This document shows, one piece after another, positions 43,974 through 64,000 of a DNA stretch of 64,000 nucleotides (positions within the stretch are counted from its first letter, which is position 1; every line of letters begins with the position of its first letter). Source of the stretch: an uncultured Chlamydiae bacterium (GTDB lineage Bacteria > Chlamydiota > Chlamydiia > Chlamydiales > JAJFMA01). A program made the translations under genes and the position numbers. The notes below the pieces were generated by a model that searched no databases, was not told where the DNA came from, and worked only from the letters and a program-made list of their open reading frames with translations. The stretch covers positions 54,000 to 117,999 of the forward strand of contig CAWBNS010000013.1 in the NCBI GenBank assembly GCA_963790215.1, written 5' to 3'.

Positions 43974-44113
43974 TGGGTTTTATCCAGATCGAATGTCAAA
44001 TGCACCGCGTGGGTCTGAGCCCTCGCGGCCCCCCCCTCTCCTATTTTTTGTAGGAATTCTGGTCAAAGCAATCAACTTCTAGCAAAATACCCAGTTGACA
44101 AAATTTATCTAAG

Positions 44114-45304: not shown

Positions 45305-45759
45305 CTCCGAAAGAGAAAACTCCATTTCTCTATGGTCCGTTAGATAAGCTCATCAGATGGGCACAAGAAAGTTCTCTTTGGCCGGCGCAGTTTGGTTTGG
45401 CTTGTTGTGCGATTGAGATGATGTCTACGGCTGCCAGTCGTTATGATATGTCTCGTTTTGGGATGGAGGTCTACCGCGCATCACCTCGCCAAAGCGATGT
45501 GATGATCGTTGCTGGCCGCGTCAGTCAAAAGATGGCTCCTGTCTTGCAAATGGTCTACGACCAGATGCTTGATCCTAAGTGGGTGGTCTCCATGGGCGAC
45601 TGCGCTTCCTGCGGAGGCGTATTCAACAACTACGCTGTCGTGCCTGTTGATCAACTTGTTCCTGTCGATGTGTACATCGCCGGTTGTCCTCCCCGTCCAG
45701 AAGCACTCCTGCACGGTCTCATGGCGCTTCAAGAGAAGGTCAAACATGCACCCCGTTGA
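45301..45759 (+). CDS. nuoB: NADH-quinone oxidoreductase subunit B
   Basis: Motifs [14 protein letters not shown] and GCPPRPE. The ATG at 45301 overlaps the nuoA stop (ATGA). Confidence 0.9.
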
Positions 45760-46261
45760 ACAGCTGAAATCACAACTCCCCAACGCAATCCTCGACGAAG
45801 TTGTCTTCGCCGGTGAAACGAGTTTGCAAATTCGAACCTCGCAATTAAAAGAGGTGCTTCGGTTGCTTCAGCCATCCTATCAGGTACTCATGGATCTGAC
45901 TGGTGTCGATTTCCTAGAACCGGAAGTACGCACAAAAATCGTTTACTGGCTGCATGATCCCACCTCCCTAGAGCGCTTACGCGTTTTCATTTATGTCGCA
46001 CGTGGAGAGGTTATCCCCTCTGTAACAGGCATCTGGGAAGGTTGTAACTGGTACGAGAGAGAATTGTACGATTTGTTCGGTGTGCATTTTGAAGGCCACC
46101 CAGATATGAAACGTATCTTGATGCCTGACGATTGGAAAGGGCATCCGCTACAGCGGGACTATCCGTTGACTGAAGTGCCCGTAGAATTTAAACACGGTGT
46201 AAAACCTAAAGTACCATCGGAAATTATTCCTTATGTCCAGGCTGACCGCACAAGAACTTGA
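45746..46261 (+). CDS. nuoC: NADH-quinone oxidoreductase subunit C
   Basis: [25 protein letters not shown]. The true start is ATG 45746; the listed 45509 start runs through nuoB out of frame. Confidence 0.9.
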
Positions 46262-47441
46262 AGAGCTCGCTAAGTCTGGCGATGTGATGGAGCTCAATCT
46301 TGGGCCTCAGCACCCGTCTACGCATGGCGTTTTAAGAATTAAACTTCGCCTTGAAGGCGAAATTGTGATCTCTGCCGAACCTGTAATTGGATACTTGCAT
46401 ACCGGCATCGAGAAAACTTGCGAAACACGTACTTACCATCAAGTCTTCACTCTCGTCGACCGCATCGACTATCTCTCAGGTCCAGCAGAAGAGCAGGCCT
46501 ACGCTGGAGCGGTTGAGCGACTCATGAACCTCGAAGTTCCTCAGCGCGCACAAACGATACGAATCATCGTCTTGGAGCTGTCTCGTATTGAAAGCCATCT
46601 TGTTTGGCTTGGGACGAGCGCGCTCGAACTCAATATGTCCTCTGTGTTCATGTATTGCATGGCCGAGCGCGAAAAGATTTTGGACCTGTTCGAAGGGTGG
46701 TCGGGAGCGCGCATGTTTCCCTCTTTTTGGCGTATCGGAGGGATTGCTAAGGATCTCAATCCGGAATTCGAAGACGATTGCCGAGCGTTTTTGAAAGCCT
46801 TTCCGAGCACGCTGAAGGATCTCAATAACCTTTTGATGGACAATTATGTTTGGGTTGAGCGTCTGCAAGGAATTGCGTTGATTGACGAAGAAACGTGCAA
46901 ACAGTACGCCTGCACAGGACCCATTTTAAGAGCTGCTGGCGTTGCTTACGATATCAGAAAGGCCTACCCCTACCTCGGCTATGAAAACTACAACTTCGAC
47001 GTTCCTACACGCACTGAGGGCGATTCTTATGCACGCTATCTAGTACGCATGGACGAGATCGAACAAAGTCTCTCCATTATCGATCAAGCACTCTCAAAAT
47101 TAGCCCCTGGGCCGATCATCACCAGTGACCGCAAAGCGGCCTTGCCACCGCGGCCGGAGCTTGCCCGTAGCATGGAAGCGGTGATTCATCAGTTCAAGCT
47201 TGTCAGTGAAGGGTTACACCCACCTGTAGGGGAAGTGTACAACTGCGTGGAATCGGCACGTGGGGAGATCGGTCATTATTTAGTCAGCGATGGCAGCAAC
47301 CGCCCCTATCGTTTGCGCGTGCGTTCGCCCTCGTTCCCACATGTGCATGTATTGCAAAAGGTCTTGCCTGGCTATATGCTGTCAGACGTCGTCGTCGCGA
47401 TTGCCAGCGTAGACCCTATTCTGGGAGATGTAGATCGCTGA
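46233..47441 (+). CDS. nuoD: NADH-quinone oxidoreductase subunit D
   Basis: LNLGPQHPSTHGVLR and a C-terminal DVDR. Confidence 0.9.
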   Translation: MSRLTAQELEELAKSGDVMELNLGPQHPSTHGVLRIKLRLEGEIVISAEPVIGYLHTGIEKTCETRTYHQVFTLVDRIDYLSGPAEEQAYAGAVERLMNLEVPQRAQTIRIIVLELSRIESHLVWLGTSALELNMSSVFMYCMAEREKILDLFEGWSGARMFPSFWRIGGIAKDLNPEFEDDCRAFLKAFPSTLKDLNNLLMDNYVWVERLQGIALIDEETCKQYACTGPILRAAGVAYDIRKAYPYLGYENYNFDVPTRTEGDSYARYLVRMDEIEQSLSIIDQALSKLAPGPIITSDRKAALPPRPELARSMEAVIHQFKLVSEGLHPPVGEVYNCVESARGEIGHYLVSDGSNRPYRLRVRSPSFPHVHVLQKVLPGYMLSDVVVAIASVDPILGDVDR

Positions 47442-47908
47442 TGCTTACGGATAAAACACGACAAGCCATTCTCGAATTGCAGAAAAAATATCCACAAAAA
47501 CGTTCTGCACTGATTCCTGCGCTGCATATCGCACAAACTGAAGTCGGCTACCTTCCAGCAGAAACACAGGAAGAGGTCGCCGAGCTGTTCGATATCGATC
47601 CAAATGAGGTCAACTCGGTCGTCAGTTTCTATGATATGTTTCACGAAAAACCCGTCGGAAAACATATTCTGCATGTATGCAAAAATGTTTCGTGCATGCT
47701 CCGAGGTGGAGATGAGCTGCTGGGAAAAATTTGTCAGCACCTTCAGGTCAAACCCGGAGAAACGACCGTTGATGGTCAATTCACCGTTATCCCGTCAGAA
47801 TGCCTCGCCGCCTGCGACCGAGCACCTATGATGATCGTTGATGATAAAGTCGTCGGCCCCATCGAAGAAAGCGATGTCGAAAAGATTCTGAAGGAGGTGG
47901 GAAAATGA
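47441..47908 (+). CDS. nuoE: NADH-quinone oxidoreductase subunit E
   Basis: 2Fe-2S cysteines: CKNVSC..C..CLAACDRAP. Confidence 0.9.
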   Translation: MLTDKTRQAILELQKKYPQKRSALIPALHIAQTEVGYLPAETQEEVAELFDIDPNEVNSVVSFYDMFHEKPVGKHILHVCKNVSCMLRGGDELLGKICQHLQVKPGETTVDGQFTVIPSECLAACDRAPMMIVDDKVVGPIEESDVEKILKEVGK

Positions 47909-47916
47909 GGTTTGTA

Positions 47917-47997
47917 AAAGGACAGCAGGGACGACAGGGACATCAGGGACTATGTGCGACGTCCTTGCAGTCCCTGATGTCCCTGCAGTCCCTTTTG
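47917..47997. repeat. Hairpin element (CAGGGAC units) in the nuoE-nuoF spacer
   Basis: cagggacatcagggact (47935-47951) pairs with agtccctgatgtccctg (47969-47985). Outer arms are imperfect: aaaaggac / gtcccttt. Confidence 0.75.
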
Positions 47998-48007
47998 GAG
48001 GTCTCCT

Positions 48008-49273
48008 ATGCCTGAGCAACGCATATTGATGGCCTTTATGGACAATGACGATCAGCGCAATGTCTCCACCTATGAAAAAAACGGCGGCTATCAGGCCATC
48101 AAAAAAGCCATCCCTGCTATAGCTCCAGCGACTCTAATCGATATGGTGAAACAATCCGGCTTGCGCGGCAGGGGTGGTGCTGGTTTTCCTACAGGGATGA
48201 AATGGGGCTTTGTCCCGCAGACGATTTCTCCGCGTTATCTGGTCTGTAACTGCGACGAAAGCGAACCGGGCACTTTCAAGGACCGACTCATCATTGAGCG
48301 CGATCCACACCAGCTCATCGAAGGGATGATTCTCGCCAGCTACGCGATCGGTGCAGAAAAGGCCTTCATCTACTGCCGTGGAGAGTTTTTTGAAGGGTTA
48401 GAAATCCTACAAAAAGCAGTCGACCAAGCAAAAGAAAAAGGTCATCTGGGCAAATTGGACATCATCGTGCATCCAGGCGCTGGCGCCTACATCGCCGGAG
48501 AAGAAACCGCACTGCTAAATTCCCTCGAAGGGTTCCGCGCTACACCACGACTTAAACCACCTTTTCCGGCTGTAGCAGGCCTGTATAGCAAACCTACTGT
48601 TGTCAATAACGTAGAAACGCTCTGCAATGTCGTACATATCGTAAATCGTGGCGTAGAGTGGTTCCTAACTATTGGCAAACCAAAAAATACCGGAACTAAA
48701 ATCTACCAAGTCAGTGGTCACGTGCAAAAGCCGGGATGCTATGAATTTCCCCTTGGAATATCTCTACGAGACCTTTTAGAAACTGCAGGTGGGATGCGCC
48801 ATGGACGTACATTCAAAGCCTGTTATCCTGGTGGTTCTTCCTGCTCGCTGCTCACCGACTTAGATGCAGCCATGGATTTCGAGTCCCTAGCGACGTATAA
48901 AACCGCACTAGGTACTGCCTCGGTTATTGTGATGGACGATTCGGCCGATATGGTTAAAGTGGCCAATCGTCTGATGCAGTTTTATCAAAACGAATCCTGC
49001 GGTAAATGCACACCTTGCCGTGAGGGTACGCGCTGGATCACACAAATGCTTACACGCATCGAAAATGGTGGAGGAACCTACCAAGATTTAGATGTAATCC
49101 TCGACGCCTGCCGTGAGATGGCTGCCAACTCATTCTGTCCGCTCGCCGTTGGCGCAGCACCGCCTGTCGTCAGCGCCATCCAGCTATTTCGAAGCGAATT
49201 CGAAGCCTACATTCGACGCAATCCCAATGCAGAAGGACATCCACAAATGAAGGTAGCGTATCCATATGCTTAG
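48008..49273 (+). CDS. nuoF: NADH-quinone oxidoreductase subunit F
   Basis: Motifs GRGGAGFPTGMKW and ESCGKCTPCREG. Confidence 0.9.
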   Translation: MPEQRILMAFMDNDDQRNVSTYEKNGGYQAIKKAIPAIAPATLIDMVKQSGLRGRGGAGFPTGMKWGFVPQTISPRYLVCNCDESEPGTFKDRLIIERDPHQLIEGMILASYAIGAEKAFIYCRGEFFEGLEILQKAVDQAKEKGHLGKLDIIVHPGAGAYIAGEETALLNSLEGFRATPRLKPPFPAVAGLYSKPTVVNNVETLCNVVHIVNRGVEWFLTIGKPKNTGTKIYQVSGHVQKPGCYEFPLGISLRDLLETAGGMRHGRTFKACYPGGSSCSLLTDLDAAMDFESLATYKTALGTASVIVMDDSADMVKVANRLMQFYQNESCGKCTPCREGTRWITQMLTRIENGGGTYQDLDVILDACREMAANSFCPLAVGAAPPVVSAIQLFRSEFEAYIRRNPNAEGHPQMKVAYPYA

Positions 49274-49289
49274 TACAAAGATAGAAATT

Positions 49290-49395
49290 AAAAAAAATCA
49301 GGATAAGCAGGGTCGCAAGCGGCAGGATAGGCAGGATAAAGTTTTTTATCCTGCCTATCCTGCCGCTTGCGACCCTGCTTATCCTGATTTTTTTT
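49290..49395. repeat. Perfect 51-bp-stem hairpin (CAGGAT units) flanked by A8 and T8, in the nuoF-nuoG spacer
   Basis: aaaaaaaatcaggataagcagggtcgcaagcggcaggataggcaggataaa, a gttt loop, then the exact reverse complement. Confidence 0.9.
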
Positions 49396-49468
49396 ACACA
49401 ACTCATCTTCTTCTTAAAAGTTTTATTGTTTTTCGTGTTTTTGTGTTTAAGAAAATGGCAGGTCTCAT

Positions 49469-51652
49469 ATGACGCAGGAACTGGAACTGATCCAATTCAC
49501 TATCGACGGTCAGTCACTCACTGTTCCTAAGGGAACCACCGTCTATAATGCCGCTCGAAGTCTGAATATCGACATTCCTATCTTTTGCTATCACGACCGC
49601 ATGCCGCCATTTGGCGCCTGCCGCATGTGCTTGGTTGAGGTAGAAAAAATGCCCAAGCTGCAAACCTCCTGCACGCTCGAAGCGACCGAAGGCATGATCG
49701 TTCACACACAGGCTGAAAATGCCGTCAAAGGACGAGAAGGCATCCTAGAGTTTCTGCTCATCAACCACCCTCTAGATTGCCCCATCTGCGATCGCGGTGG
49801 AGAGTGCCCCTTACAAGACCAGACAGTCAAATTTGGGCCCGGAAACAGCCGTTTCTACGAAGAAAAGCGTCACTTTAAAAAGCCGATTCCCCTAGGGCCT
49901 GTTTTGATGCTCGATCGTGAACGCTGCATCGTCTGTGCACGCTGCACACGCTTTGGAGACGTTGTCGCAGGCGACCACGCCCTAGAATTCATCGACCGCG
50001 GATTTAAGACAGAAGTGGGCACACCCGACGGTGGGCCAGCCGATTCCAAATTCATCGGAAACACCATCATGATCTGCCCTGTGGGGGCGCTCACCAGTAA
50101 CGTGTATCGCTTCCGCGCACGTCCATGGGACAACAAACATACACCAACAACTTGTCCGTTGTGTCCAGTGGGCTGCAGCATGATCCTCGACGAACGCGAC
50201 GGTGAAATCATGCGTACACGCTCGCATGAAAACAAAGCAGTGAACGATGTATGGCTATGCGATAAGGGTTGGTTTGGATATGAATTCTCCTACCATCCTG
50301 ACAGACTAAAAGAACCGCTTATCCGCCGCTCAGGTACTTTACAGCCTGCATCCTGGGAAGAAGCACTGACACTTGTCGCACAAAAAATGCAACAAGCCGA
50401 GACCGTCGCAGCATGGGGCGGAAACAACCTCACCGCAGAAGAAAATGTGCTGCTGCAAGATCTCATACGCAACGGTGTAGGAAGCAATAACGTCGATCAT
50501 CGTGTCGGTCAACCCATTCTACCACTAGCTGAAGAAGGAATCCCCCCAGGCATGGAGATGTCCATCGGCGCTTGCGAAGAACTCTCCTTCGCTCTGCTTC
50601 TAGGCCTAGATATCACCGAAGAATTTCCCGTCGTATGGCTGCGTTTAAAGCAAGCCATCAACCGCGGTGCAGAGATCACCTACATCGGACATTACGCACC
50701 TGAAATCGCACCGCACCTCGCCAAAACCGTCGTACATGCACCTGGGGATGAACTCGAAATCATAAAGAAGCAAATCAATGCACTTCCTAATAAAAAGGGA
50801 GCGATCTTCATCGGGTCGCAGTACCTCGCCTCACCTCATCGTCGAGCCATTTTAGCCGAACTTAAAAAGCTCGATCTACCGTTAAATATCATGGAAGGCC
50901 GTGAAAATAGCATGGGGGCACGGATGGCGGGAATGCATCCAGAAATGGGCGCACAACCAGGTTTAAGCATTCTTCAAGTTTTAGAAGCATCAACATGGGA
51001 TTTCCTCTATGTTGTCGGAGCTAACCCTGCGCAACTACCTAAGGTTAATTTCTTAGTCGTGCAGGATCTGTTTCTTACACCCGCAGCCCAACAAGCTGAT
51101 GTAGTTCTTCCTACACTCTGTTTTGTAGAAAAAGAAGGTTCCTTCATCAACATCGAAGGCCGTATACAGCAAATACGTCCAGGAAAACCTCGCCCAGAAA
51201 ATCTCATGAGTGATGCAGAGATTTTCCGGCGCCTTGCAGAGAAAATCCAATTCACACTGACAGAAACAGAAATCGAATCGTTGCAACTACAACGACCCAA
51301 AGAAATTTCCACGAGAAGCTCCCCACGCATAGCGCAAAATGGTTCTCTTGCGGCTACTTTCGCGCCTGCATTATTCAACGGTGGCCAGCGCATGCAACAT
51401 AATCCACATGTAACGCAACTGGTAAAAGAACCGCGACTCAGACTGCACCCTACAGATGGTTTAAAACGAGGATTGCAAGATGGTGATGTTGCTACGATAA
51501 CCGCAAATGGAAATTCTCTGTCAGCAAAAGTAAAACTCGATTCTAAAGTGGCCAGCGGATGCATCGTGCTTCCGCTAGGCTTTGACGAAGTACCCGTTCA
51601 TAAACTGAGCCAAAATCTGATCAACGGGTTTCCAGTCGAGGTGCGAAAATGA
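49469..51652 (+). CDS. nuoG: NADH-quinone oxidoreductase subunit G
   Basis: Motifs CYHDRMPPFGACRMC, HPLDCPICDRGGECPLQD and CIVCARCTRF. Confidence 0.9.
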   Translation: MTQELELIQFTIDGQSLTVPKGTTVYNAARSLNIDIPIFCYHDRMPPFGACRMCLVEVEKMPKLQTSCTLEATEGMIVHTQAENAVKGREGILEFLLINHPLDCPICDRGGECPLQDQTVKFGPGNSRFYEEKRHFKKPIPLGPVLMLDRERCIVCARCTRFGDVVAGDHALEFIDRGFKTEVGTPDGGPADSKFIGNTIMICPVGALTSNVYRFRARPWDNKHTPTTCPLCPVGCSMILDERDGEIMRTRSHENKAVNDVWLCDKGWFGYEFSYHPDRLKEPLIRRSGTLQPASWEEALTLVAQKMQQAETVAAWGGNNLTAEENVLLQDLIRNGVGSNNVDHRVGQPILPLAEEGIPPGMEMSIGACEELSFALLLGLDITEEFPVVWLRLKQAINRGAEITYIGHYAPEIAPHLAKTVVHAPGDELEIIKKQINALPNKKGAIFIGSQYLASPHRRAILAELKKLDLPLNIMEGRENSMGARMAGMHPEMGAQPGLSILQVLEASTWDFLYVVGANPAQLPKVNFLVVQDLFLTPAAQQADVVLPTLCFVEKEGSFINIEGRIQQIRPGKPRPENLMSDAEIFRRLAEKIQFTLTETEIESLQLQRPKEISTRSSPRIAQNGSLAATFAPALFNGGQRMQHNPHVTQLVKEPRLRLHPTDGLKRGLQDGDVATITANGNSLSAKVKLDSKVASGCIVLPLGFDEVPVHKLSQNLINGFPVEVRK

Positions 51653-51658
51653 GATACG

Positions 51659-51761
51659 CCTTGGAGTGCGGTGACTTGTTTGTCAACATAGGCGCTTTGC
51701 GCCATTTCAGAGACTTATGTTTTAGGATAACAAGTCGCCGCACTCCAAAGCGCTTCGCGCC
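51659..51761. repeat. Hairpin element of the TTGGAGTGCGG family in the nuoG-nuoH spacer
   Basis: ccttggagtgcggtgacttgtt pairs with aacaagtcgccgcactccaaag. It is followed by cgcttcgcgcc, which shares a 16-mer with 29768 in the opposite orientation. Confidence 0.8.
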
Positions 51762-51800
51762 GGTATTCTTAAATTTCCATAAGATGAGGGCCTCTTTCCC

Positions 51801-52778
51801 ATGCTAGAAGCCATATTAGGAGTTCTCCTCAAAGGCATCATCACGATTCTTATTCTCATGGGCTTTGCTGCCTATATGACACTGCTAGAGCGCGTGCTTA
51901 TGGCTCGCATGCAACTGCGCCTCGGACCCAATCGCGTCGGCCCTTGGGGCCTTTTACAACCCATTGCCGACGGGATTAAACTGGTCAACAAAGAACGATT
52001 CCAACCCGCTGGCGTCGCCAAATTCACCTATTGGCTGGCTCCAAGCATTTCACTTTTTATCGCTCTCTTTATCTTTGTTCTCATTCCCGTAGGGCCTCCA
52101 GTAACTCTATTCGGGCATGAAGTGCGTTTACAAATCGCAGACGTCAATGCAGGCATCGTCTTTCTACTCGCATTTTCTTCCCTTGCCGTCTACGGAGTCG
52201 TCTTAGCTGGTTGGTCCTCAAACAACCGCTACTCACTTCTTGGTGGACTACGCGGAACCGCCCAGCTCATCAGCTACGAAGTGCCTATGGGCCTATCCCT
52301 GCTCACAGTGGTTCTAGCAGCAGGCACGCTCAGTCTATCCGAAATCGTCGAAGCACAGCGCAACCATTGGTTTATCTGGTCTAATCCCATCAGTTTCCTC
52401 ATCTATCTCATCACCGCGTTCGCCGAGACAAACCGTGCCCCATTTGACCTTCCTGAAGCCGAACACGAGCTTACAGGCGGCTATCACACAGAATACGGCG
52501 GTCTCAAATTCGCCATCTTTTTTCTAGCCGAATACGTTAACATCCTCGCGGTCTCTTCCATTGCGGTAACGCTATTTATGGGTGGATGGCTCGGACCGGG
52601 CGATCTTCCTGTAATCTGGTTCCTAGCTAAATTAGCCGTCTTCGTCTTCTTCTTTATGTGGGTGCGCGCAACCATGGCGCGGTTTCGTTATGACCAACTC
52701 ATGAACTTCGGCTGGAAGGTGTTAGTTCCCTTAGCAACCCTGAATTTAATCGTAACTGCTTACTTTACTTTGGTGTGA
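51801..52778 (+). CDS. nuoH: NADH-quinone oxidoreductase subunit H
   Basis: [17 protein letters not shown] and [14 protein letters not shown]. Confidence 0.9.
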
Positions 52779-52779
52779 A

Positions 52780-53253
52780 ATGAAACAACAGTTGAAACGA
52801 GTTTGGTCTGTCATTGCCGGTCTTTGGATCGTGCTCAAATACGCCTTCAAAAAGCCAACAACCATCCGGTATCCCGAAGAAAGACGCAAACTACCCGACC
52901 GCTCACGTGGACGCCACTACCTCACCAAATGGGAAGATGGTAAGGAGCGTTGCGTAGGATGCGAACTATGCGCCATCGTTTGCCCTTCACAGGCAATCTA
53001 TGTAAAACCTGCTCAAAATAACCCAGAAGCACCCCATTCACACGGAGAACGCTACGCCGCCGATTTTCAAATCAACATGCTGCGCTGCATCTTCTGCGGT
53101 TACTGCGAAGAAGCATGCCCCACCGGAGCGATCATTCTCGGCAATGAATATGAATTAGCGGGATACGATCGAGAATCTTTGATCTATACCAAAGAGATGC
53201 TCACAGAAGTGCATCCTGGCGACTCCGGACGCGATCCACGGAGAGAAATATGA
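52780..53253 (+). CDS. nuoI: NADH-quinone oxidoreductase subunit I
   Basis: Two 4Fe-4S motifs: CVGCELCAIVCP and CIFCGYCEEACP. Confidence 0.9.
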   Translation: MKQQLKRVWSVIAGLWIVLKYAFKKPTTIRYPEERRKLPDRSRGRHYLTKWEDGKERCVGCELCAIVCPSQAIYVKPAQNNPEAPHSHGERYAADFQINMLRCIFCGYCEEACPTGAIILGNEYELAGYDRESLIYTKEMLTEVHPGDSGRDPRREI

Positions 53254-53744
53254 TCGTTGATTATATCCTCGGTACCATTCTCATTTTCTCTTCGCTGGGC
53301 GTGCTGCTGTTCCGCAAACCCGTGCACGCAAGCCTTTCTTTTTTGCTGACATTGCTTGCACTTGCCGCTCTCTATTTGCAACTCTCCGCCGAATTCATCG
53401 CCGTGATGCAAGTCCTTGTCTACGCAGGGGCTATCTTAGTTATTTTCATGTTCGTGATCGTTCTCTTCCAAGACGCTCATCAGCAGATCGAAAAATATGA
53501 AAGCCAAAGCGCACCCGTGTTGTTGATCGGTGCTGCCTCCGCCCTCGTCATTACACTCTTATTTCTTGGACACAGACTACTTGGCTTAACAACACCACGC
53601 GCACAACTACCTGAGGGATACGGAAGTGTACAGTCACTTGGACATGCGCTCTATCTGGATTTCTTCTTCCCTTTTGAAGCAGTCATCCTGATGTTTCTCG
53701 TCGCGGTCGTAGGAGCGCTATACATTGGAAAAAAGGTGAAATGA
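53250..53744 (+). CDS. nuoJ: NADH-quinone oxidoreductase subunit J
   Basis: Position in the operon, a hydrophobic protein, and VYAGAILVIFMFVI. Confidence 0.85.
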   Translation: MIVDYILGTILIFSSLGVLLFRKPVHASLSFLLTLLALAALYLQLSAEFIAVMQVLVYAGAILVIFMFVIVLFQDAHQQIEKYESQSAPVLLIGAASALVITLLFLGHRLLGLTTPRAQLPEGYGSVQSLGHALYLDFFFPFEAVILMFLVAVVGALYIGKKVK

Positions 53745-54043
53745 TGGATATATCGCTCTTCGTCTTTGTCAGCATGGCTATGTTCGCCATAGGAATCATC
53801 GGTGTATTAGCTAAACGCAATGCGCTGATTTTGTTTCTCTCCATCGAACTCATGCTCAACGCTGCAAATCTGCTGTTTGTCACGTTTGCACGCCAATGGG
53901 GCAATCAGACCGGGCTTGTTTGGGTATTCTTTGTTCTCGTTGTTGCCGCCGCAGAAGCCGCAGTAGGCCTCGCGATTATCATCAATCTGTTCCGCTCAAA
54001 ACAGGTTGTCGATGTAGATCAATACAATGTTTTGAAGGGGTAA
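53741..54043 (+). CDS. nuoK: NADH-quinone oxidoreductase subunit K
   Basis: 100 aa with SIELMLNAANL and AAAEAAVGLAI. Confidence 0.9.
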   Translation: MMDISLFVFVSMAMFAIGIIGVLAKRNALILFLSIELMLNAANLLFVTFARQWGNQTGLVWVFFVLVVAAAEAAVGLAIIINLFRSKQVVDVDQYNVLKG

Positions 54044-54063
54044 CCAATACGATGATACGAGAA

Positions 54064-54179
54064 TTTTTGGAGTGCGGCGACTTGTCGCCGCTTTTATACA
54101 GCTCGACTTGTCGAGCTGCCAGAGGCATCGACAAGTCGATGCCTTTGAAAGCGGCGACAAGTCGCCGCACTCCAAAAAA
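54064..54179. repeat. Compound hairpin element with four CGAC(TT/AA)GTCG palindromic cores, in the nuoK-nuoL spacer
   Basis: The outer arms are ttttggagtgcggcgacttgtcgccgcttt and aaagcggcgacaagtcgccgcactccaaaa. Inside are agctcgacttgtcgagct and ggcatcgacaagtcgatgcc. Confidence 0.9.
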
Positions 54180-54197
54180 TAACACCCAGGAGACATC

Positions 54198-56061
54198 ATG
54201 CAACACCTAGCCTGGACCGGTCTTTTCTTACCTTTGTTGGGCTTCCTCATCATTTTGGCCTCATCACATTGCATCTCACGCCGTGTATGCAACTTCATCG
54301 CATGTGCCACAATAGGCCTTGCCTTCCTTTGCTTTGCCGCTATCGTCGCTTACGGCGACCATACTTACAACTTCACCCTCTTTTCCTGGATCCCCGTTAA
54401 AGGAATCAGTGCCGACTTTGCGATTCATCTCGATCATCTTTGTTGCTAATGACCATGATTATTACCGGAATAGGCTTTCTGATTCATGTTTATTCCACTG
54501 GATATATGGAACATGACGAAGACTACGCACGCTTTTTTGCCTGCATGAATTTTTTCGTCTTCAACATGCTTCTGTTGGTACTCGCAAGCAACTTGTTGCT
54601 GCTATTTGTGGGTTGGGAAGGCGTCGGCTTAGCGTCCTATCTCCTGATCGGTTACTACTACCATCGCCCAACCGCCGCACAAGCCGCTACAAAAGCCTTT
54701 GTCATCAACCGTATCGGGGACTGGGGACTACTTGTCGGTCTTCTACTGACCTTCCAAACTTTCGGCACAAGCGACATGTTAGCAGTTAACCAGCGTGCAG
54801 GACAAATCTTCGCAAATACAGCGCCGATCATCAGCTTGATCAGCCTCCTTTACTTCATTGGTGCCTCAGGGAAATCCGCACAACTACCGCTACACACATG
54901 GCTGCCCGATGCGATGGAAGGCCCCACACCCGTCTCCGCCCTGATCCACGCCGCAACCATGGTTACTGCAGGAGTATACCTAGTTGTACGCATGCACTCC
55001 GTCTTCTTTAAACGCACCTGAAGTTCTCTACTACATCGGTTGTGTCGGAGCCGCAACAGCCCTTTTTGCCTCCCTCTGCGCTATGGCACAACCTGATCTC
55101 AAACGTGTGTTGGCCTATTCCACCGTAAGCCAGCTTGGGTACATGTTCCTTGCCTGTGGCTCGGCGTTTCTATGCAGCTATGTTCCACCTCACCACACAC
55201 GCTTTTGTGAAGGCCCTACTCTTCCTCTCTGCCGGAAATGTCGTACACATGATGCAAGGCACCACCAACATGGAAGTGATGGGCGGTCTCTGGAAAAAAT
55301 TCCCCAAAACACACATCCTCTTCGCCATCGGCGCTCTTGCTATGTCGGGAATTCCCCCTCTAGCCATCTTCTTTTCGAAAGATCTCATCTTGGAAATAGA
55401 ATACACCGCCGGCTATCACGTGCTTTTTGGAGTTGGTGTTCTCGCAGCCGTGTTAACAGCCTTCTACCTCGCACGCGCTTACTGCCTCACTTTCCTAGGC
55501 AAGCCACGCGTCGAAGAAAAAATCTTCAAAACCATCAAAGAAGCACCAAGGCGCATGCTAGTGCCTGTCACTATACTTGCAATCCTCTCCCTTTGCGGCG
55601 GCTTTTTAGGATTCGGATTCGGCAAAATTCCACTGCTAGAACATTTCCTTCTGTCAGATGACCCCACACTAGAACCTATTGGAACCGGCGAGCTCGAGTT
55701 CTCCATAGACACATGGATCTCCATCGCTGCAGGCATCCTTGGCGTACTCATAGGCACACTCATGTATACACGATACTACGAGAAGCTCGGACCGCGCGTA
55801 CAGGTTTTACGAGAAGCGTTTTACCTCGACCAAATCTACTGGACACTAATCGCCAGACCAATCAGAGCCCTCGCTAAATTCATCTCTGTCTACGTAGAAC
55901 CTAATCTGTTCGACAGCTCCATACGTCTAGCCGTTAACGCCACACAACGCGACTCTGTGCGCTTACAACGCATGCAAAGCGGGCAAATCCGCTCCTATGT
56001 TGCATGGATGCTAATCGGATCCGTTCTCTTGATCGCGTACCTCACAGTGAAGGGGGCCTAA
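54198..56061 (+). pseudogene. nuoL: NADH-quinone oxidoreductase subunit L, interrupted by three frameshifts
   Basis: NuoL sequence continues across four ORFs in different frames. The junctions are near 54441 (LDHL|LLLMTMIITG), 55007-55012 ([16 protein letters not shown]) and 55167-55169 ([30 protein letters not shown]). Confidence 0.8.
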
Positions 56062-57422
56062 TGTCCATCACCAAGTCTATCGCCACCATACTCAGTCTCA
56101 TTCCGCTCGCCCTCCTTCTGTATGGACAACAAAGTTGGTTAGGCGCAGAACTCGACTACCTCTGGTTTCCTTCTCTTTCTATCCACTTTCACCTAGCTGT
56201 GGATGGTCTCTCCTTGGTTTTTCTCTATTTGACAGCCGTAATCATTCCCATCTCTATCCTCGCTTTTCCCAACACGGAAGATCGACAACCCGTTCTTTTT
56301 TATGGGCTGGTGCTTGTGCTAGAACTTCTCTTAATTGGATTTTTCACCGCGCGCGATCTGGCCTTTTTCACCTTCTTTTGGGAAGCGATGCTGTTGCCTC
56401 TCTACTTCATCATTAGTCTGTGGGGCGGACCACAACGCCAAGCCGCAGCGATGAAGTTTCTCGTCTACATGATCGCCGGCTCAGCCCTTATGGTCGCCGC
56501 CGTGTTGTTTCTGTACCTAGCTGGCAACACTTTCGATATAACAGCTCTTTCCAAAATCGCTGGCGGCCTTAAACAAGCGCCTTGGATCTGTGGAATCTTC
56601 CTTCTCGCTTTCGCCGTAAAAACGCCTCTTTTCCCATTTCACGCATGGCTCTCAGATGCCTACACCCAAGCACCCACTTCTGGAACAATTCTTCTCTCCG
56701 CTCTTCTCTCTAAGGCCGGCATCTACGGAATCGTGCGCATCGCCTTAGATTTCTTCCCGCATCTCATGATCGACTGGGCTCCCTTCTTACTTAGCTTCGC
56801 CGTCGCGGGTGTCTTCTACGGAGGCCTCGCCGCTTGGCGTCAAAAAGACTTCAAACGGCTCATCGCCTACAGCAGCTTCTCGCATGTGAATTTCATTCTG
56901 GTCGGACTCTTCGTCTACAGCCAAGTCGCACATACTGGCGCCATCTTGCAGGCACTAAACCATGGCATCACAATTACAGGACTGTTTCTCGTTGCGTGGT
57001 GGTTGGAAGAGCGCCTCGGCACAACTGCACTTGGGCAAGTACATGGCCTCGCCAAATTTCTCCCACACCTTTGTTGGCTCACGCTCTTTTTCGTTCTCTC
57101 CTCGGTAGCACTCCCAGGCACCAACAGCTTTGTAGGAGAACTCCTCATCCTCTTTGGTCTCTTCGGACATAACGCTTACCTCGCGGCGTTTCTCGCCCTC
57201 TCAGTCATTCTTTCTGTGCTTTACATGCTCCGCTTCATGCAAGAGGTCTACTTCCAAGCCCCCACTTTCTTTCAACCACGATGGGTCGACATCCAAACCA
57301 AGCAGTTCTTCCTCGCACTGCCACTCGTCGCCCTAATCCTCTGGATCGGTATCTATCCCAAACCAGTACTAGAACAAATTCAAAATCACGTTGAAGCCTA
57401 CCACACGGAGAACATCACATGA
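56061..57422 (+). CDS. nuoM: NADH-quinone oxidoreductase subunit M
   Basis: ATG 56061 overlaps the nuoL stop (TAATG). The protein is typical of NuoM, with FPFHAWLSDAY. Confidence 0.9.
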   Translation: MSITKSIATILSLIPLALLLYGQQSWLGAELDYLWFPSLSIHFHLAVDGLSLVFLYLTAVIIPISILAFPNTEDRQPVLFYGLVLVLELLLIGFFTARDLAFFTFFWEAMLLPLYFIISLWGGPQRQAAAMKFLVYMIAGSALMVAAVLFLYLAGNTFDITALSKIAGGLKQAPWICGIFLLAFAVKTPLFPFHAWLSDAYTQAPTSGTILLSALLSKAGIYGIVRIALDFFPHLMIDWAPFLLSFAVAGVFYGGLAAWRQKDFKRLIAYSSFSHVNFILVGLFVYSQVAHTGAILQALNHGITITGLFLVAWWLEERLGTTALGQVHGLAKFLPHLCWLTLFFVLSSVALPGTNSFVGELLILFGLFGHNAYLAAFLALSVILSVLYMLRFMQEVYFQAPTFFQPRWVDIQTKQFFLALPLVALILWIGIYPKPVLEQIQNHVEAYHTENIT

Positions 57423-58861
57423 CCGCCGCTCTATCCACGACGGACCTATACGCCCTTAGCCCCCTCCTCATCGTATTAGGAACAGCCCTCTTGATTCTAC
57501 TGCTAGAGAGCTTCACCGTAGAATTCGCAAAAAAATACTCCTCCACCCTTGTTATGCTAGGCTTAACCAGCGCCATCATCGCCAACTGGTATGCTCCTGC
57601 AAGCACAAACCCCTTACTCACCCCATGGCTAAAATTCGATCACCTCACCCAACTATTCACCCTCTTTTTTCTTGTGATCGGTCTCGCCACAACCTTACTC
57701 TCCGCAGCTTTCTTTCAACGCTACGAGGCCACACACGGTGAATACTATTTCCTACTTCTCTCCGCACTGTTTGGATTAATCCTGATCGGTGCCTCAGCCG
57801 ATTTCCTCACTCTCTTTCTCGGATTAGAAACCCTCTCCATCGCTCTCTACGTACTTTGTGGCTACATGAAAGCTTGGGAACTATCGCATGAATCATCGAT
57901 GAAGTATTTCCTAATGGGAGCCATCGCCGCTGCCTGCCTACTCTACGGTATCGCCCTCATCTATGGCGCTGTCGGTACGACCCGCTTCGACGCACTCCTG
58001 AGCGGATATCAAAGCCTGCAGACTAGCTCAGCGCAAGCTCTCTTCATGAGTGGCATCGCATTGGTTACTTTGGGACTCGCCTTTAAAGCAGCCATCGTAC
58101 CTTTTCACGTGTGGGCGCCAGACGTCTATGAAGGCGCTCCCACACCCGTCACAGCTTTTATGGCCGTTGGGACCAAGGTAGGCGCTTTCGCCGCATTTAT
58201 TCGCGTTTTTCTTCTCGCGTTGCCGCAATTTAGTCCAGTATGGAACGAAGCCATCAGCTTCCTGGCCTATCCGACTCTTATCTATGCCAATTTCGTCGCT
58301 CTCCGACAAGTGCAACTCAGACGCTTCTTTGCTTATTCAGGCATATCTCACGCAGGCTTTTTGCTGATTCCTCTCGCTGCCGGAACCACTGAAGCTCTTT
58401 CTGCCATGCTATTCTACCTTGTTGTCTACGCCATAGCCACGCTGGGGGCCTTCTCAGTCCTCGCCTTCGTCGATCAACGCAAACAAGGCGCCATCTTGCA
58501 CGACCTTACCGGGCTCATGCATCGCTCGCCTCTACTAGCAGGCATCCTGGCCCTCTGCCTCCTAACCCTTGCTGGAATCCCACCTACCGCAGGCTTTTTC
58601 GCTAAATTCTACCTCTTCAAAGTCGCTTTCGATGCCGGCTTCTACGCCCTTGTCATCGTTGGACTCCTCACCACCATCCTCTCCGCCTACTACTACCTCC
58701 GCATCATCGGCGTCATGCTCGCCAATACCTCTGAGGAGCCAGCAGAAACCCATCGCTTCTACCCCGCCACTACCCTAGCCCTCATCTGCTTCGCCGCCAT
58801 CCTACTCGTCTCCATCTTCCCCACACCACTCCTCAAATGGACTGAATTTAGAGTCGGCTAA
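57419..58861 (+). CDS. nuoN: NADH-quinone oxidoreductase subunit N
   Basis: ATGA overlap with nuoM, and VPFHVWAPDVYEGAPTPVTAF. Confidence 0.9.
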   Translation: MTAALSTTDLYALSPLLIVLGTALLILLLESFTVEFAKKYSSTLVMLGLTSAIIANWYAPASTNPLLTPWLKFDHLTQLFTLFFLVIGLATTLLSAAFFQRYEATHGEYYFLLLSALFGLILIGASADFLTLFLGLETLSIALYVLCGYMKAWELSHESSMKYFLMGAIAAACLLYGIALIYGAVGTTRFDALLSGYQSLQTSSAQALFMSGIALVTLGLAFKAAIVPFHVWAPDVYEGAPTPVTAFMAVGTKVGAFAAFIRVFLLALPQFSPVWNEAISFLAYPTLIYANFVALRQVQLRRFFAYSGISHAGFLLIPLAAGTTEALSAMLFYLVVYAIATLGAFSVLAFVDQRKQGAILHDLTGLMHRSPLLAGILALCLLTLAGIPPTAGFFAKFYLFKVAFDAGFYALVIVGLLTTILSAYYYLRIIGVMLANTSEEPAETHRFYPATTLALICFAAILLVSIFPTPLLKWTEFRVG

Positions 58862-58904: not shown

Positions 58905-58941
58905 CTGGAGTGCGGCGCTCCGCGCCGCCTTGTTCTTGTTA
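58905..58941 (+). terminator. Truncated TGGAGTGCGG-type hairpin after nuoN (possible operon terminator)
   Basis: ctggagt gcggcgc tcc gcgccgc, followed by the T-rich cttgttcttgtta. It has only a left-hand family terminus. Confidence 0.35.
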
Positions 58942-59109: not shown

Positions 59110-62022
59110 TCACCGCAAACCCGAAATTTTACCAGAGACGTTGAGCAAAACATCGGCCATTAAGGTTCTTGACAATGAGCTACGTAAATCCAGATCTAAA
59201 ATTAACGCGCGAGAATTACCTTGCGAGTACGACGTTGACATTGGGGCGAGTAAGATCATTGGAACATACCAATCCAATTCAAAATCCAAAGTAATATCAC
59301 CTTTACTAATATGAAGCCGATCGAACTTTCTTGCAGTATTCCAAAAAGAATAAATGGAAACTGATTCCAGTGCAAGACGAATACCCGCTTTATTTAGACT
59401 ATCTGGACTAAAAACACTGACAGAATCATCCAATAAAAAGGCGGCGACGGCAAAATCGACGCAGCTATTGGCGGAAAGTACCAATCCCGGTCTTCCTAAA
59501 GCCATAGTGCGAGCTTCCCAATCTGCGGCTCCATATAGATCCTTAATGAAGTTGATTTTAGCAACCATTGTCTCTCTCAACTGTTTCTTGGACTCTAAAC
59601 GTAGTTCTATGGAATCAAATGCTGCATCTATCTCCTCTTGCTTCATGATGATCTTTTCAACTTCCTTTAATTGAACTACCTGATCAAATAATCCTTTTAC
59701 TTCACTCAAAGCTTGCTCAATTAGCTGCTCAATTACTTGATTCTCTGCATTAAAACGAGCATTGTTCGACTTGATATACCCAACCAACTTATAGATACCT
59801 AGGGGAATTCCGATAGGTAGGGCGAGTCCTAACGTTGCCCAAGATCCGAGTTCAAAGCTTTTTACCACAGAATTTCCCGCAGCTTCCCTTGCCTGTCTTA
59901 GTTGGGCTTCAAGGTTTATCCATTCCTGATCGGCTTCTTCGGATTTCTCGCCTAACAGATGTCCTAACCCCTTCAAACCCATAATATAGTTTTTAAGACG
60001 TACAGTCTCTGTTTCTAGCTGCTTACTACTTTTATACTTAGGAAACCGCGTTAAAACCATCTGAATCGTGGAAATTTGCAGCTCAGCTATAATTCCTTCG
60101 ATGTAATTAACAATACAGTTTTCCACAACTTTTCTACTGTATCCTCTTACTAACCGGGCATTCATTTCTGGAAGATGTAAAAACTCTCCGATCTGCGGTG
60201 CCCACGGCGTTATCGCCTTTATGAGACTAGTATCAAGGACTCGCTGCCTAAATTTTTTGTTATCCTCGAAATCGAGGTGGTAACCTTTTTTAGACTCAAG
60301 TTCCTCTCTAAGATTGTGCTGAAACCGCTGCTCCAACAGCCTTTCGTCACTTATTTCCAATGATAACTCATGATTGACCAGAACCTTTCCTACAGGCAAC
60401 TCTGACAGTGCTTGGATACAAGTCGCTAAACTATCTTCCATCTCCAAATGCGCAAATCGAGCAAGGTGGGTCAGCCCTATCTGCGTTAACAATTGATTTT
60501 CTATTTCTTGAATCGCACGCCTCAGCTCTATCTTCTCTTCCGTATCCGGCAAGTTCCCAAGGGAAAATTGTGTCCTTGCGCGCTGGAGGTCAGCAAACTT
60601 TTCCCTCTTCTGATTTAGTTGAACCTCTAGACTCGGCATCTGCAAGACAAGCGTCTCAAGCAATGCAATCTCAGCTTCTAGAGTAATTTCCTCTTTCGAC
60701 GGAGCTGATAACTCCATTCTTTGCTGCGCTTCAATACTTTCAAGCCGTACGAAGTCAGAATTTTGTACGTATTTTGTAATTCCTAAAACACAGTGATCCT
60801 TGTTTGCTAGCAAACGGCTAAGCCTAGCTCCTAAACGTGCTGCAGTCGCATAACGATCCTCAACGTTGGTGATCGATTCAAGAACAATCACCTTAGGACC
60901 ATACCTCTTGATCAAAAAGATTAACGCCAATTCCATCCCTAATCCAACAAGCGGACCGCTAGAATCATCAAATCCCGCAAGGTCCCCAATGATTCTCCGG
61001 TCGGATACTGTCTCAATATTTGGCAAAAAGGTGCAAGAAATCGCCTTCTCGTTGCCGATAATCCCGCCCATGTCGCCTTGAGAAGCATAACAGGACCCCT
61101 GACGCTCCATCTTATCCCCTCTAAGAAAAGACAAAGTGGTTGATTTCCCCGCTCCAGAGCCCCCTATAAGAAAGGTAATCTCACAATCTTTCCAATTGGC
61201 AGGCATAGCCTCCTTGACTTTCTTAATGATCGCAGCTCTCGTTTCCAAAACGATCCGCGAAATCTCAGAGAAAGAAATTTGTTCACAAGCCTCGATCCGA
61301 GCATTACGATTCGGAAGCGCTCTCATGGTGATCAAATGCAGATAAAGAGAGAGAAAACCATTGTCCAAAATTTCATTTAGATAGGCCGGGTAGTTTTTAA
61401 AATCTCCCTGCTGTAACTTTACGAGCTCAACTTTTTCATCTTCGACCGTACGCCTTCTTTCTCGATCTTCAATCAGCAGCTTCCTCTTTTGTTCAATCAC
61501 TTTAGTAAGTCGTTCATTAAGATCTGACCCAAGCAAAGACGCGACATCATGATTGAATTGCTCCTCGGATCGACAGAAGGGGATCATAAACGCAATTCTA
61601 GCTTTATCGCCTTCGCTAAAATCTCTTCGTAACGCTGCAAATGCCACATCAAACCCACAACTTTCAACAAAATTCTGCAAATGATAGACGGATAGAATAT
61701 CCTCGAATTTTCTTAACTTTGGCTTTTCCACCAAAACGGCCTGCACCTTTTCAATCACCTTGCTTAATGGCATAGAAGTGGTGATTGAGAAGCTGGACTC
61801 ATCTCGAAGCGCAGCGTCGAGCGAGCAATAAATTTGATTAATATCCTCCACATCATGCCAACAGAGGATCGGTTTGGTTAGAATTTTTATAAATAGCTCC
61901 ATTATTGAATTGTCAATCGGAACAGCTGGTCTAAACGGAGTACGCTTCCCGTTGATTTGACTGCAATAACTCGATTTAACCTCTAGAGGTTGTAATCGTA
62001 CATAACTCTTAACATCCATCAT
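59110..62022 (-). CDS. Large (970 aa) P-loop GTPase-like coiled-coil protein with a predicted membrane hairpin
   Basis: G1 is FLIGGSGAGKSTTL, G3-like is IGDLAGFDD, and a possible degenerate G4 is GITKYV. There are extensive coiled-coil regions. The hydrophobic hairpin SWATLGLALPIGIPLGIYKLVGYI lies about 455 aa after the P-loop. The start ATG directly abuts the upstream stop. Confidence 0.5.
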   Translation of the reverse strand: MMDVKSYVRLQPLEVKSSYCSQINGKRTPFRPAVPIDNSIMELFIKILTKPILCWHDVEDINQIYCSLDAALRDESSFSITTSMPLSKVIEKVQAVLVEKPKLRKFEDILSVYHLQNFVESCGFDVAFAALRRDFSEGDKARIAFMIPFCRSEEQFNHDVASLLGSDLNERLTKVIEQKRKLLIEDRERRRTVEDEKVELVKLQQGDFKNYPAYLNEILDNGFLSLYLHLITMRALPNRNARIEACEQISFSEISRIVLETRAAIIKKVKEAMPANWKDCEITFLIGGSGAGKSTTLSFLRGDKMERQGSCYASQGDMGGIIGNEKAISCTFLPNIETVSDRRIIGDLAGFDDSSGPLVGLGMELALIFLIKRYGPKVIVLESITNVEDRYATAARLGARLSRLLANKDHCVLGITKYVQNSDFVRLESIEAQQRMELSAPSKEEITLEAEIALLETLVLQMPSLEVQLNQKREKFADLQRARTQFSLGNLPDTEEKIELRRAIQEIENQLLTQIGLTHLARFAHLEMEDSLATCIQALSELPVGKVLVNHELSLEISDERLLEQRFQHNLREELESKKGYHLDFEDNKKFRQRVLDTSLIKAITPWAPQIGEFLHLPEMNARLVRGYSRKVVENCIVNYIEGIIAELQISTIQMVLTRFPKYKSSKQLETETVRLKNYIMGLKGLGHLLGEKSEEADQEWINLEAQLRQAREAAGNSVVKSFELGSWATLGLALPIGIPLGIYKLVGYIKSNNARFNAENQVIEQLIEQALSEVKGLFDQVVQLKEVEKIIMKQEEIDAAFDSIELRLESKKQLRETMVAKINFIKDLYGAADWEARTMALGRPGLVLSANSCVDFAVAAFLLDDSVSVFSPDSLNKAGIRLALESVSIYSFWNTARKFDRLHISKGDITLDFELDWYVPMILLAPMSTSYSQGNSRALILDLDLRSSLSRTLMADVLLNVSGKISGLR

Positions 62023-63990: not shown

Positions 63991-64000
63991 GCCTAAAGTT

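Follow-up and report, generated by a model that had tools for sequence, protein, structure and literature searches.

What do the two long open reading frames (ORFs) that abut one another on the minus strand at the end of this stretch of DNA encode, and do they work as one unit? The window, as we call the whole stretch that was analysed, covers 64,000 nucleotides (nt) of contig CAWBNS010000013.1 from an uncultured Chlamydiae bacterium, and positions given without the name of another locus refer to it. The ORF list of the window places the gene of protein 1 upstream and that of protein 2 directly behind it. Judged from the sequence, the locus is best explained as a cassette of two translationally coupled genes that would act as one functional unit. 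The cassette locks together an orphan family with a probable phospholipase C (PLC) fold and an orphan GTPase-like family, and every functional step assigned to them below is one that we infer. The genes and their junction are as follows.

62023 to 64000, minus strand: protein 1 gene, 655 codons plus TAG inside the window; full length 663 amino acids (aa) in P0028
59110 to 62022, minus strand: protein 2 gene, 970 aa
62017 to 62034, minus strand: junction, AAGGTTAG followed by ATGATG, with a Shine-Dalgarno-like AAGG, the in-frame TAG and then two ATGs

The listed ORF of protein 1 spans 62023-63990 with GTG as its first listed start. There is no in-frame stop from 63990 to base 64000 and the frame therefore runs off the window, as the initial annotation of this DNA had suspected. 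An identical database protein (P0028) is 663 aa long with the N-terminus MELGLTLG, as compared to 655 codons in the window, placing the true start about 8 codons past base 64000. Protein 2 has also been called from its second ATG (P0001, 969 aa, aligning to residues 2-970). The junction reads ...CGC AAA GGT TAG ATG ATG GAT..., so that the protein 1 stop TAG (62023-62025) directly abuts the protein 2 ATG (62020-62022), with AAGG situated 6 nt upstream of that ATG. This arrangement of stop and start had been noted before and was borne out. A point missing from the initial annotation is that both ORFs lie in one reading frame, a frame of 1,626 codons with a single TAG inside.

The shared frame with only one TAG between the ORFs could also mean that a nonsense mutation or an error of assembly has split a single gene, leaving a pseudogene and not an operon. 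A paralog on the same contig (P0002) is continuous over the equivalent position, and tblastn with this fused protein gave an alignment that continued across the TAG of the window. This must be set against the finding that in eight other loci the two genes were as a rule separate and adjacent, in several cases mutually out of frame. In addition, the TAG is immediately followed by ATG-ATG and preceded by AAGG, an independent Logan assembly carried the same gene boundaries and structure, and the catalytic and G motifs described below are all intact on either side of the TAG. We consider a broken gene very improbable and rejected the pseudogene or artefact reading. As the two genes are split as a rule, and often mutually out of frame, the fusions look derived. 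On the same grounds the TAG-ATG arrangement is taken as a normal, tightly coupled operon, with the junction as the probable site of translational coupling.

Pairing was counted at loci that held a protein 1 homolog together with enough downstream DNA, namely the window, L005, L011, L014/L015, L016, L017, L018 and L020-L022. A protein 2 homolog was the next same-strand gene after the protein 1 homolog in 10/10 of these loci. The gaps ranged from 0 to ~175 nt, and the neighbourhoods were all different and unrelated. One locus (L020) comes from a complete genome, that of a Rhabdochlamydiaceae symbiont of Dictyostelium giganteum. The initial annotation depended on a PLC-like metal site, a GTPase fold and a pair conserved in other genomes; the pair was conserved in all ten informative loci and fused in two proteins, and the searches described below lent some support to both the site and the fold.

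Both proteins were joined end to end in P0002 and P0009. P0002 (1613 aa) is encoded on the same 185,885-nt contig outside the window, is 76% identical over the protein 1 part and 57% over the protein 2 part, and retains intact ligand and G motifs. P0009 (1642 aa, from another assembly) has lost its ligands (H59Q, H229Y, D233E, H239N, H273Y, with the NSDHF region missing) and its hydrophobic tip is degenerate, so that by sequence it resembles a fused unit whose enzyme part has become a pseudo-enzyme. In P0005 the protein 2 module was joined to no more of protein 1 than its 250 helical C-terminal residues, an architecture that may be a 5'-truncated call. The converse of the pairing fails: protein 2-like genes also occurred without protein 1, including head-to-tail arrays lacking any protein 1 gene (L019, L001, L002 and L007). 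L019 held at least 7 copies of ~930 aa each with 10-nt spacers (670-19140) and L001 at least 5 copies (592-16130). The paralogs were 75-88% identical within L019 and L001, and only 33-67% identical within L007.

Nearly all source-labelled relatives of either protein came from Chlamydiota genomes or metagenome-assembled genomes (MAGs), with sources in Parachlamydiaceae, Waddliaceae, Simkaniaceae, Rhabdochlamydiaceae, Ca. Algichlamydia and Protochlamydia. No named Chlamydiaceae protein was among the matches to either protein. Bins labelled otherwise were a Bacteriovoracia MAG (L003, L004, L006 and L013), Verrucomicrobia (P0086) and Babeliaceae (P0088). These members lay on short contigs except for P0086 (113-kb contig) and were probably mis-binned or transferred between amoeba-associated bacteria.

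The first partner raises the question of whether it is a zinc PLC-like enzyme. The features of protein 1 are listed here with their candidate counterparts in PC-PLC, the PLC of Bacillus cereus.

62956 to 63843, minus strand: catalytic-type domain (residues ~50-345), predicted to be all-helical and the only part common to distant homologs
63814 to 63822, minus strand: SEH (57-59), candidate counterpart of PC-PLC H14
63694 to 63708, minus strand: GDFYG (95-99) with invariant D96, candidate counterpart of PC-PLC D55
63433 to 63447, minus strand: NSDHF (182-186; N182, D184, H185), candidate counterpart of the 'SHF' H69 of PC-PLC
63268 to 63309, minus strand: CHFLTDLFSAGHIR, containing H229-x3-D233-x5-H239 and the invariant R241, aligned by hhalign to PC-PLC H118/D122/H128
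63163 to 63174, minus strand: HEQD (273-276; H273, D276), candidate counterpart of PC-PLC H142/E146
63100 to 63111, minus strand: YGDG (294-297) with invariant G295 and D296
62026 to 62754, minus strand: C-terminal long-helix domain (residues 413-655), Chlamydiota-specific, a candidate docking domain

All of the motifs quoted for protein 1 in the initial annotation were present, including H-x3-D-x5-H within CHFLTDLFSAGH (residues 228-239), and they were conserved. H59, D96, H185, H229, D233, H239, H273 and D296 were all intact in 112/117 relatives, those without the full eight-residue pattern being truncated sequences and the fusion P0009. E58 and H59 were each present in 112/117, the H-x3-D-x5-H motif in 116/117, and R241 and R244 in 117/117; E58, N182, D184, H198, D276 and W291 were nearly invariant. 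Conservation of this kind exceeds chance by far. About 85 relatives were full length, at 33-54% identity, and further homologs (Pseudomonas, Legionellales, Deltaproteobacteria and others) shared residues ~50-345 only. The AlphaFold2 model of protein 1 (predicted local distance difference test score, pLDDT, 88.7; predicted template modelling score, pTM, 0.70) had an all-helical core at residues 56-330 and a long-helix domain at 413-654, mostly at pLDDT 85-97 and including one 75-residue helix. The model renders the region previously described as a ~250-aa coiled coil as a confident helical domain.

Protein 1 had no match above threshold in Pfam or NCBIfam, and phmmer and profile searches against PDB sequences returned no match. 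For a direct comparison the B. cereus PC-PLC sequence was verified against 1AH7 and a family alignment was built for hhalign. The alignment placed H229/D233/H239 exactly on the PC-PLC zinc ligands H118/D122/H128 and extended over the preceding helix (27-33 columns, P ~0.005-0.009, probability 5-7%). Extended hhalign alignments at lower -mact were unreliable and were discarded. H59, D96, H185 and H273/D276 are ordered as H14, D55, H69 and H142/E146 of PC-PLC, an order that no reliable alignment places residue by residue. The zinc PLC family of Pfam (PF00882) was matched weakly by 4/47 relatives (best E 0.017) and was the only enzyme family recurring among the weak Pfam matches; its gathering score was not reached and protein 1 itself had no match to it at E<=1. 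A Foldseek search of the protein 1 model against 350,542 PDB chains found no match at E<=1e-3; zinc PLCs (of C. absonum, B. cereus, C. perfringens and Listeria) appeared from rank 4 onward and accounted for 14 of the top 50. We regard the high rank of PLCs in this unbiased fold search as meaningful because the initial annotation had named the family before any search was run. The proposal of a zinc-PLC-like metal site thus stands in its invariant ligand-like residues, its hhalign match and its Foldseek neighbours, although each score is weak and the Pfam threshold was missed. Taken together we are fairly confident that the domain is a metallo-phosphodiesterase of the PLC/P1-nuclease fold, which would bind zinc.

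PLC and P1 nuclease have the same fold and the same set of zinc ligands, and protein 1 could instead be a P1/S1-type zinc nuclease or another phosphodiesterase, with the pair targeting nucleic acids or soluble phosphodiesters of host or foreign origin. The only securely aligned segment is the H-x3-D-x5-H motif common to both enzyme types, and the two invariant arginines beside it could bind the phosphates of any substrate. The evidence on substrate nonetheless leans to lipid: among the top 50 PDB folds were 14 chains of zinc PLCs and none of a P1/S1 nuclease, the weak Pfam matches were to PF00882 and not to S1-P1 nuclease, the partner module is elsewhere fused to patatin, another lipase, and some distant homologs carry the NCBI or UniRef name 'phospholipase', which is an annotation and not an assay. 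We therefore consider a nuclease or soluble-substrate enzyme unlikely and a lipid the more likely substrate. The nuclease alternative concerns the substrate alone and could be compatible with the effector role proposed below.

Two further searches concerned the surroundings of protein 1 homologs. The catalytic domain used as a tblastn query against plasmids gave two matches only, both 'hypothetical protein'. The locus of a Pseudomonas homolog (L023) had housekeeping neighbours and no type VI secretion system or toxin context. A 63-aa ORF at L023 9656-9847, directly after the Pseudomonas 'phospholipase' P0122, might be an immunity or partner protein.

The second partner raises the question of which GTPases, if any, protein 2 belongs with. 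Its features are the following.

61207 to 61911, minus strand: N-terminal helical domain (residues 38-272), after low-confidence, probably disordered residues 1-34
60763 to 61185, minus strand: G-domain-like alpha/beta core (residues ~280-420), from the model and fold searches
61138 to 61167, minus strand: Walker A or G1, IGGSGAGKST (GGSGAGKST at 287); family consensus F-L-L-G-G-[ST]-G-A-G-K-S-T
61027 to 61038, minus strand: SCTF, candidate switch I or G2 threonine from conservation, S329 and T331 invariant; family consensus S329-C-T331-F-L-P
60973 to 60984, minus strand: DLAG at 347, G3 or Walker B of the DxxG type; family consensus V-D347-F-P-G350-F-D-D
60766 to 60777, minus strand: TKYV at 416 (TKY[S/T] in the family), G4-like without the specificity aspartate; family consensus C-x-L-G-I-T416-K-Y-[S/T]
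59473 to 60759, minus strand: long-helix 'stalk' (residues 422-850), from the model
59773 to 59850, minus strand: hydrophobic segment LGSWATLGLALPIGIPLGIYKLVGYI (residues 725-750) with a conserved PxGIPxGI core, a candidate membrane-inserting hairpin
59116 to 59466, minus strand: small C-terminal alpha/beta region (residues 853-969), from the model, partly at low confidence

In 27 close homologs and in 124 cluster representatives the G motifs varied little or not at all, and their spacing was Ras-like. K293 was found in 111/116 representatives, T331 and D347 each in 117/119 and G350 in 112/119. The protein 2 model (pLDDT 77.3, pTM 0.74) contained a compact alpha/beta domain at 281-420. Nothing was above threshold for protein 2 in Pfam or NCBIfam, and sequence searches of PDB (phmmer and profile) gave Walker-A matches only. 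Fold searches were more informative. In PDB, Foldseek ranked Irga6/IIGP1 first (E 5.4e-3, probability 0.99), followed by Irgb10 and GM4951. After these IRG proteins came Sey1p, SMG9 (0.99), MnmE, EngB (0.98), Arl (0.98), G-alpha and GIMAP2, and MxA, dynamin, the Campylobacter dynamin-like protein (DLP) pair 5oxf and GBP1 were also matched. In BFVD the leading matches were AIG1 (0.97), GBP (0.91), atlastin-like and Dynamin_N proteins of giant viruses. The high-probability matches in both databases were almost all GTPases, and none reached E<=1e-3. The model and these matches support assigning protein 2 to the TRAFAC class of GTPase folds with helical extensions, its nearest predicted relatives being membrane-associated large GTPases. 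The earlier suggestion of a TRAFAC-like GTPase was upheld for the conserved G1-G3 motifs and the fold, and was weakened by a TKYV without the aspartate. In view of a G4 without that aspartate, use of GTP rather than ATP by protein 2 is tentative.

Membership in dynamin, IRG or any other named family was not supported. A bona fide dynamin or bacterial dynamin-like protein (BDLP) was rejected, as Dynamin_N was matched by 2/27 members at E ~1, the G domain is ~140 aa and not ~300 aa, and the PDB fold probabilities for dynamin, MxA and BDLP were 0.16-0.25 (BDLP 0.16) with 0.28 for viral Dynamin_N in BFVD. The analogy to bacterial dynamins in the initial annotation, whose structural reading was otherwise for the most part right, consequently held no further than a large GTPase of the membrane type. 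IRG proteins were fold matches only, with no IRG sequence match in the PDB searches and no TKxD aspartate in G4. An ABC ATPase was rejected as well: only a Walker A stretch of ~35 residues matched ABC models, direct reading of residues 280-430 found no LSGGQ, the Walker B is VDFPG and not hhhhDE, and a single ABC transporter (mouse P-glycoprotein, probability 0.05) was among the top 50 PDB folds. The statement that neither protein could be placed in a known family was confirmed by the Pfam and NCBIfam searches. Out of 1.84 billion cluster representatives, a profile of protein 2 retrieved 565 with E<=1e-3 and 195 with E<=1e-30. In the best explanation, protein 2 defines a large family of GTPase-like proteins of the TRAFAC class, undescribed so far, for which Pfam and NCBIfam hold no model.

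The hydrophobic segment lies 441 aa after the P-loop, not ~455 aa as first estimated, and its peak Kyte-Doolittle value of 1.58 is borderline for a transmembrane helix. In the model it is flanked by long helices (694-719 and 757-804). The initial annotation had called it a hairpin; the segment is hydrophobic and conserved, but it is too short for a two-pass hairpin. Re-entrant or wedge-type insertion into a membrane would be a reasonable role for it.

What might such a pair do? The module of protein 2 was also found in other architectures, which bear on this question.

N-terminal to the protein 2 module: ankyrin repeats and patatin phospholipase, in four cluster representatives (P0018, P0022, P0205 and P0227)
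C-terminal to the protein 2 module: DUF4116 repeats in long arrays (P0176, P0174, P0211, P0164 and P0023)
C-terminal to the protein 2 module: UCH deubiquitinase (P0023)
N-terminal to the protein 2 module: PARP-like domain, sub-threshold (P0013 and P0145)

That one scaffold carries two unrelated types of lipase speaks for a role at membranes or on lipids, and the ankyrin repeat and deubiquitinase fusions argue for a scaffold that works inside a eukaryotic cell, ubiquitin being a eukaryotic system. F-box and BTB/LRR genes adjoined some loci. At L018 (6366-12486) the neighbours of the pair encoded a ubiquitin-like protein and a Trypsin-NACHT protein of 1018 aa and included a fragment of a Tn3-family transposase, a setting that looks like a mobile element or conflict island.

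The gene arrangement, the motif conservation, the strict pairing with two fusions and the swapping of enzymes on the GTPase-like module were all observed directly, and they are best read as pointing to a modular chlamydial family of host-targeting effectors. For the cassette itself we propose, with about an even chance of being right, an exported pair acting on host membranes in which protein 2 anchors and protein 1 cleaves lipid. Both proteins would be exported into the host cell. Protein 2 would insert its hydrophobic tip into the host or inclusion membrane, assemble there under nucleotide control and recruit or activate protein 1, contact being made through the helical C-terminal domain of the latter. 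Protein 1, as a metal-dependent phosphodiesterase with a site probably of the trinuclear-zinc PLC/P1-nuclease type, would then cleave phospholipid head groups at that membrane.

Several observations weigh against this proposal. For protein 1 no single statistic linking it to PLC was significant: the profile and fold scores were individually weak (E 0.005-3), with Foldseek at E 0.3-3 and a TM score of 0.3, the hhalign probability was just 5-7%, and the profile found nothing in PDB sequences. Protein 1 also lacks a counterpart to the Trp that serves as N-terminal ligand in PLC and P1 nuclease, and the fold is common to P1/S1 nucleases so that a nucleic acid substrate could apply. For protein 2 the guanine-specifying Asp of the G4 [NT]KxD is missing (T-K-Y-[S/T/A] among the tallied family residues) and sequence matches reached Walker-A level only, to ABC_tran and RsgA. 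The hydrophobic segment is ~25 residues long, borderline in hydropathy and modelled at pLDDT 53-60. No signal peptide was found and secretion is something we infer. Finally, P0009 has lost the catalytic residues, indicating that pairing does not always require catalysis. It shows that the association can outlast catalysis and fits a structural or regulatory interplay of the two parts.

Action on the bacterium's own envelope would account for some of the same features. Protein 2 would then be a dynamin-like remodeller comparable to BDLP, DynA or LeoA and protein 1 its lipid-modifying partner, serving division, membrane repair or vesicles. Bacterial dynamins are frequently encoded as pairs, the stalk of protein 2 carries a hydrophobic tip, and there were weak fold matches to dynamin, MxA and the Campylobacter DLP pair 5oxf and a weak PADLOC match to LeoBC (E 8.6e-4). 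The Dynamin_N result (2/27 members, E ~1) and the ~140-aa G domain speak against it, as do BDLP and dynamin fold probabilities of 0.16-0.28 compared to 0.9-0.99 for IRG and AIG1. Arrays of at least 7 paralogs and fusions to ankyrin repeats and a deubiquitinase are ill-suited to a housekeeping envelope role, and no named Chlamydiaceae protein was matched. We judge an envelope function to be quite unlikely.

The exchange of enzyme domains on a single NTPase scaffold would also suit a defence or toxin system, with protein 2 as sensor or switch and the PLC/P1-fold enzyme, patatin and PARP-like domains as interchangeable effectors, like NLR/STAND or dynamin-type (Eleos) anti-phage systems. Paralog arrays that diversify (75-88% identity), the weak LeoBC and nSTAND_NTPase5 matches and the Trypsin-NACHT protein and Tn3 transposase adjoining the L018 pair are consistent with such a role. 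PADLOC, however, returned nothing for protein 1, and its one match for protein 2 (LeoBC, E 8.6e-4) was sub-significant. Eukaryotic targets are indicated by the ankyrin, UCH-deubiquitinase and DUF4116 partners, the family occurs mainly in obligate intracellular Chlamydiota whereas defence systems are usually spread across phyla, and the neighbourhoods hold mostly housekeeping genes. A conflict system carries a similarly small probability in our estimate.

Returning to the exported effector pair, a broader reading is possible that we hold tentatively and think somewhat doubtful. Environmental chlamydiae may possess an undescribed expanded family of host-delivered IRG/GIMAP/dynamin-like GTPase scaffolds (at least 195 clusters at 50% identity, with tandem arrays). 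These would serve as a platform for membrane targeting and activation of interchangeable enzymes by means of a hydrophobic stalk tip and nucleotide-driven assembly, the enzymes being the zinc PLC-like protein as obligate partner together with patatin lipase, deubiquitinase and PARP-like domains. If correct, this would represent a new modular logic of effector delivery to host membranes, possibly with mimicry of, or interference with, host large-GTPase defences, and would add a bacterial branch to the IRG/GIMAP/GBP/dynamin membrane GTPases. It would also offer a testable effector platform made of a nucleotide switch, a membrane hairpin and an exchangeable enzyme. Should it prove wrong, two orphan families still gain a functional partner through their strict pairing and the fusions. 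Neither protein has a curated family, yet the cassette is widespread in chlamydiae associated with amoebae and protists. A candidate zinc PLC is of interest in a phylum where host lipid acquisition and control of the inclusion membrane are central and poorly understood, and so is a large new GTPase-like family that is repeatedly wired to lipases and ubiquitin-system enzymes.

The surroundings of the cassette are ordinary chromosome, with the nuo operon, glgB, ligA and an S9 peptidase. The convergent nuoN on the plus strand ends at 58861, 248 nt from the protein 2 stop, and a plus-strand terminator-like hairpin lies at 58912-58928. A promoter and terminator scan gave nothing exceeding shuffled expectation, and the window contained no tRNAs. 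The nuo (complex I) operon at ~45270-58861 on the plus strand appears complete, and nuoD, F, G, L, M and N were recognised in it. Further away, a 1012-aa ORF on the plus strand (12735-15773) has CelD_N and glycoside hydrolase family 9 domains of the cellulase type, which is notable in a chlamydial genome as amoebal cyst walls contain cellulose. Positions 1-8000 have an unusually strong positive AT skew (0.13-0.30) and a negative GC skew, and the ORFs at 76-2670 (864 aa) and 2679-4370 (563 aa) had no Pfam match. GC content dips at 42001-44000 (0.38) and 8001-10000 (0.41), compared to ~0.47-0.50 nearby, the latter overlapping an AAA_14 ATPase ORF (8798-10018).

How does the cassette compare with known systems? 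A literature search found no account of this chlamydial family or of its pairing with a PLC. The zinc PLCs of PF00882 (B. cereus PC-PLC, the Clostridium alpha-toxin N-domain and Listeria PlcB) have in common with protein 1, as modelled, an all-helical core, H-x3-D-x5-H at a helix end and further invariant His and Asp residues in the same order. Protein 1 differs in having no N-terminal Trp ligand and no signal peptide, in falling below the Pfam threshold, in ~75 more residues than PC-PLC between the second and third ligand positions and in the spacing of the last pair (HxxD as compared to HxxxE in PC-PLC). It also has an extra helical domain of 250 aa and an obligatory GTPase-like partner.

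Closer in lifestyle are PlcA, PlcB and PlcC (CegC1) of Legionella, which together with the PC-PLC of P. fluorescens reportedly make up a new family of zinc metallophospholipase C enzymes, said to have been described by Aurass and colleagues in 2013 (cited in PMC6617341). These are reportedly zinc-dependent PLCs that have no Pfam PLC domain and belong to bacteria associated with amoebae, and PlcC is said to be a translocated effector. Membership of protein 1 in this family is a plausible lead at the level of names, through the Pseudomonas 'phospholipase' and the Legionellales MAG homologs. The comparison is by description only, and the Legionella enzymes differ in having no reported GTPase-like partner.

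Protein 2 resembles the IRG (p47), GIMAP/AIG1, GBP/atlastin/Sey1 and dynamin/BDLP proteins in a G domain flanked by helical domains, a G3 of the D-x-P-G type and a G4 starting with TK. In its model two long stalk helices flank a hydrophobic element of low confidence, as in the paddle of BDLP. Unlike these families, protein 2 has no sequence-level match to them, a compact G domain of ~140 aa and a G4 without Asp, and its P-loop region resembles ABC and RsgA sequences instead.

For the cassette as a whole a functional analogy is offered by Legionella VipD, reportedly a patatin-like phospholipase effector activated by host Rab5/Rab22. There too the activity or location of a lipase effector is tied to a GTPase on the target membrane. 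The GTPase of VipD is a host protein, whereas the chlamydial GTPase-like protein is encoded beside the lipase-like protein or fused with it. For Amoebophilus asiaticus, a symbiont of amoebae, it has been proposed that effectors carrying GIMAP/AIG1-like GTPase domains remodel the membranes of the host (Aravind et al. 2012, PMC3417536). That system belongs to another phylum, with no PLC pairing or fusion described, and is likened to the chlamydial cassette by concept only. The concept is the same: GTPase domains of the membrane-scaffolding type deployed alongside lipase and ubiquitin-system effectors.

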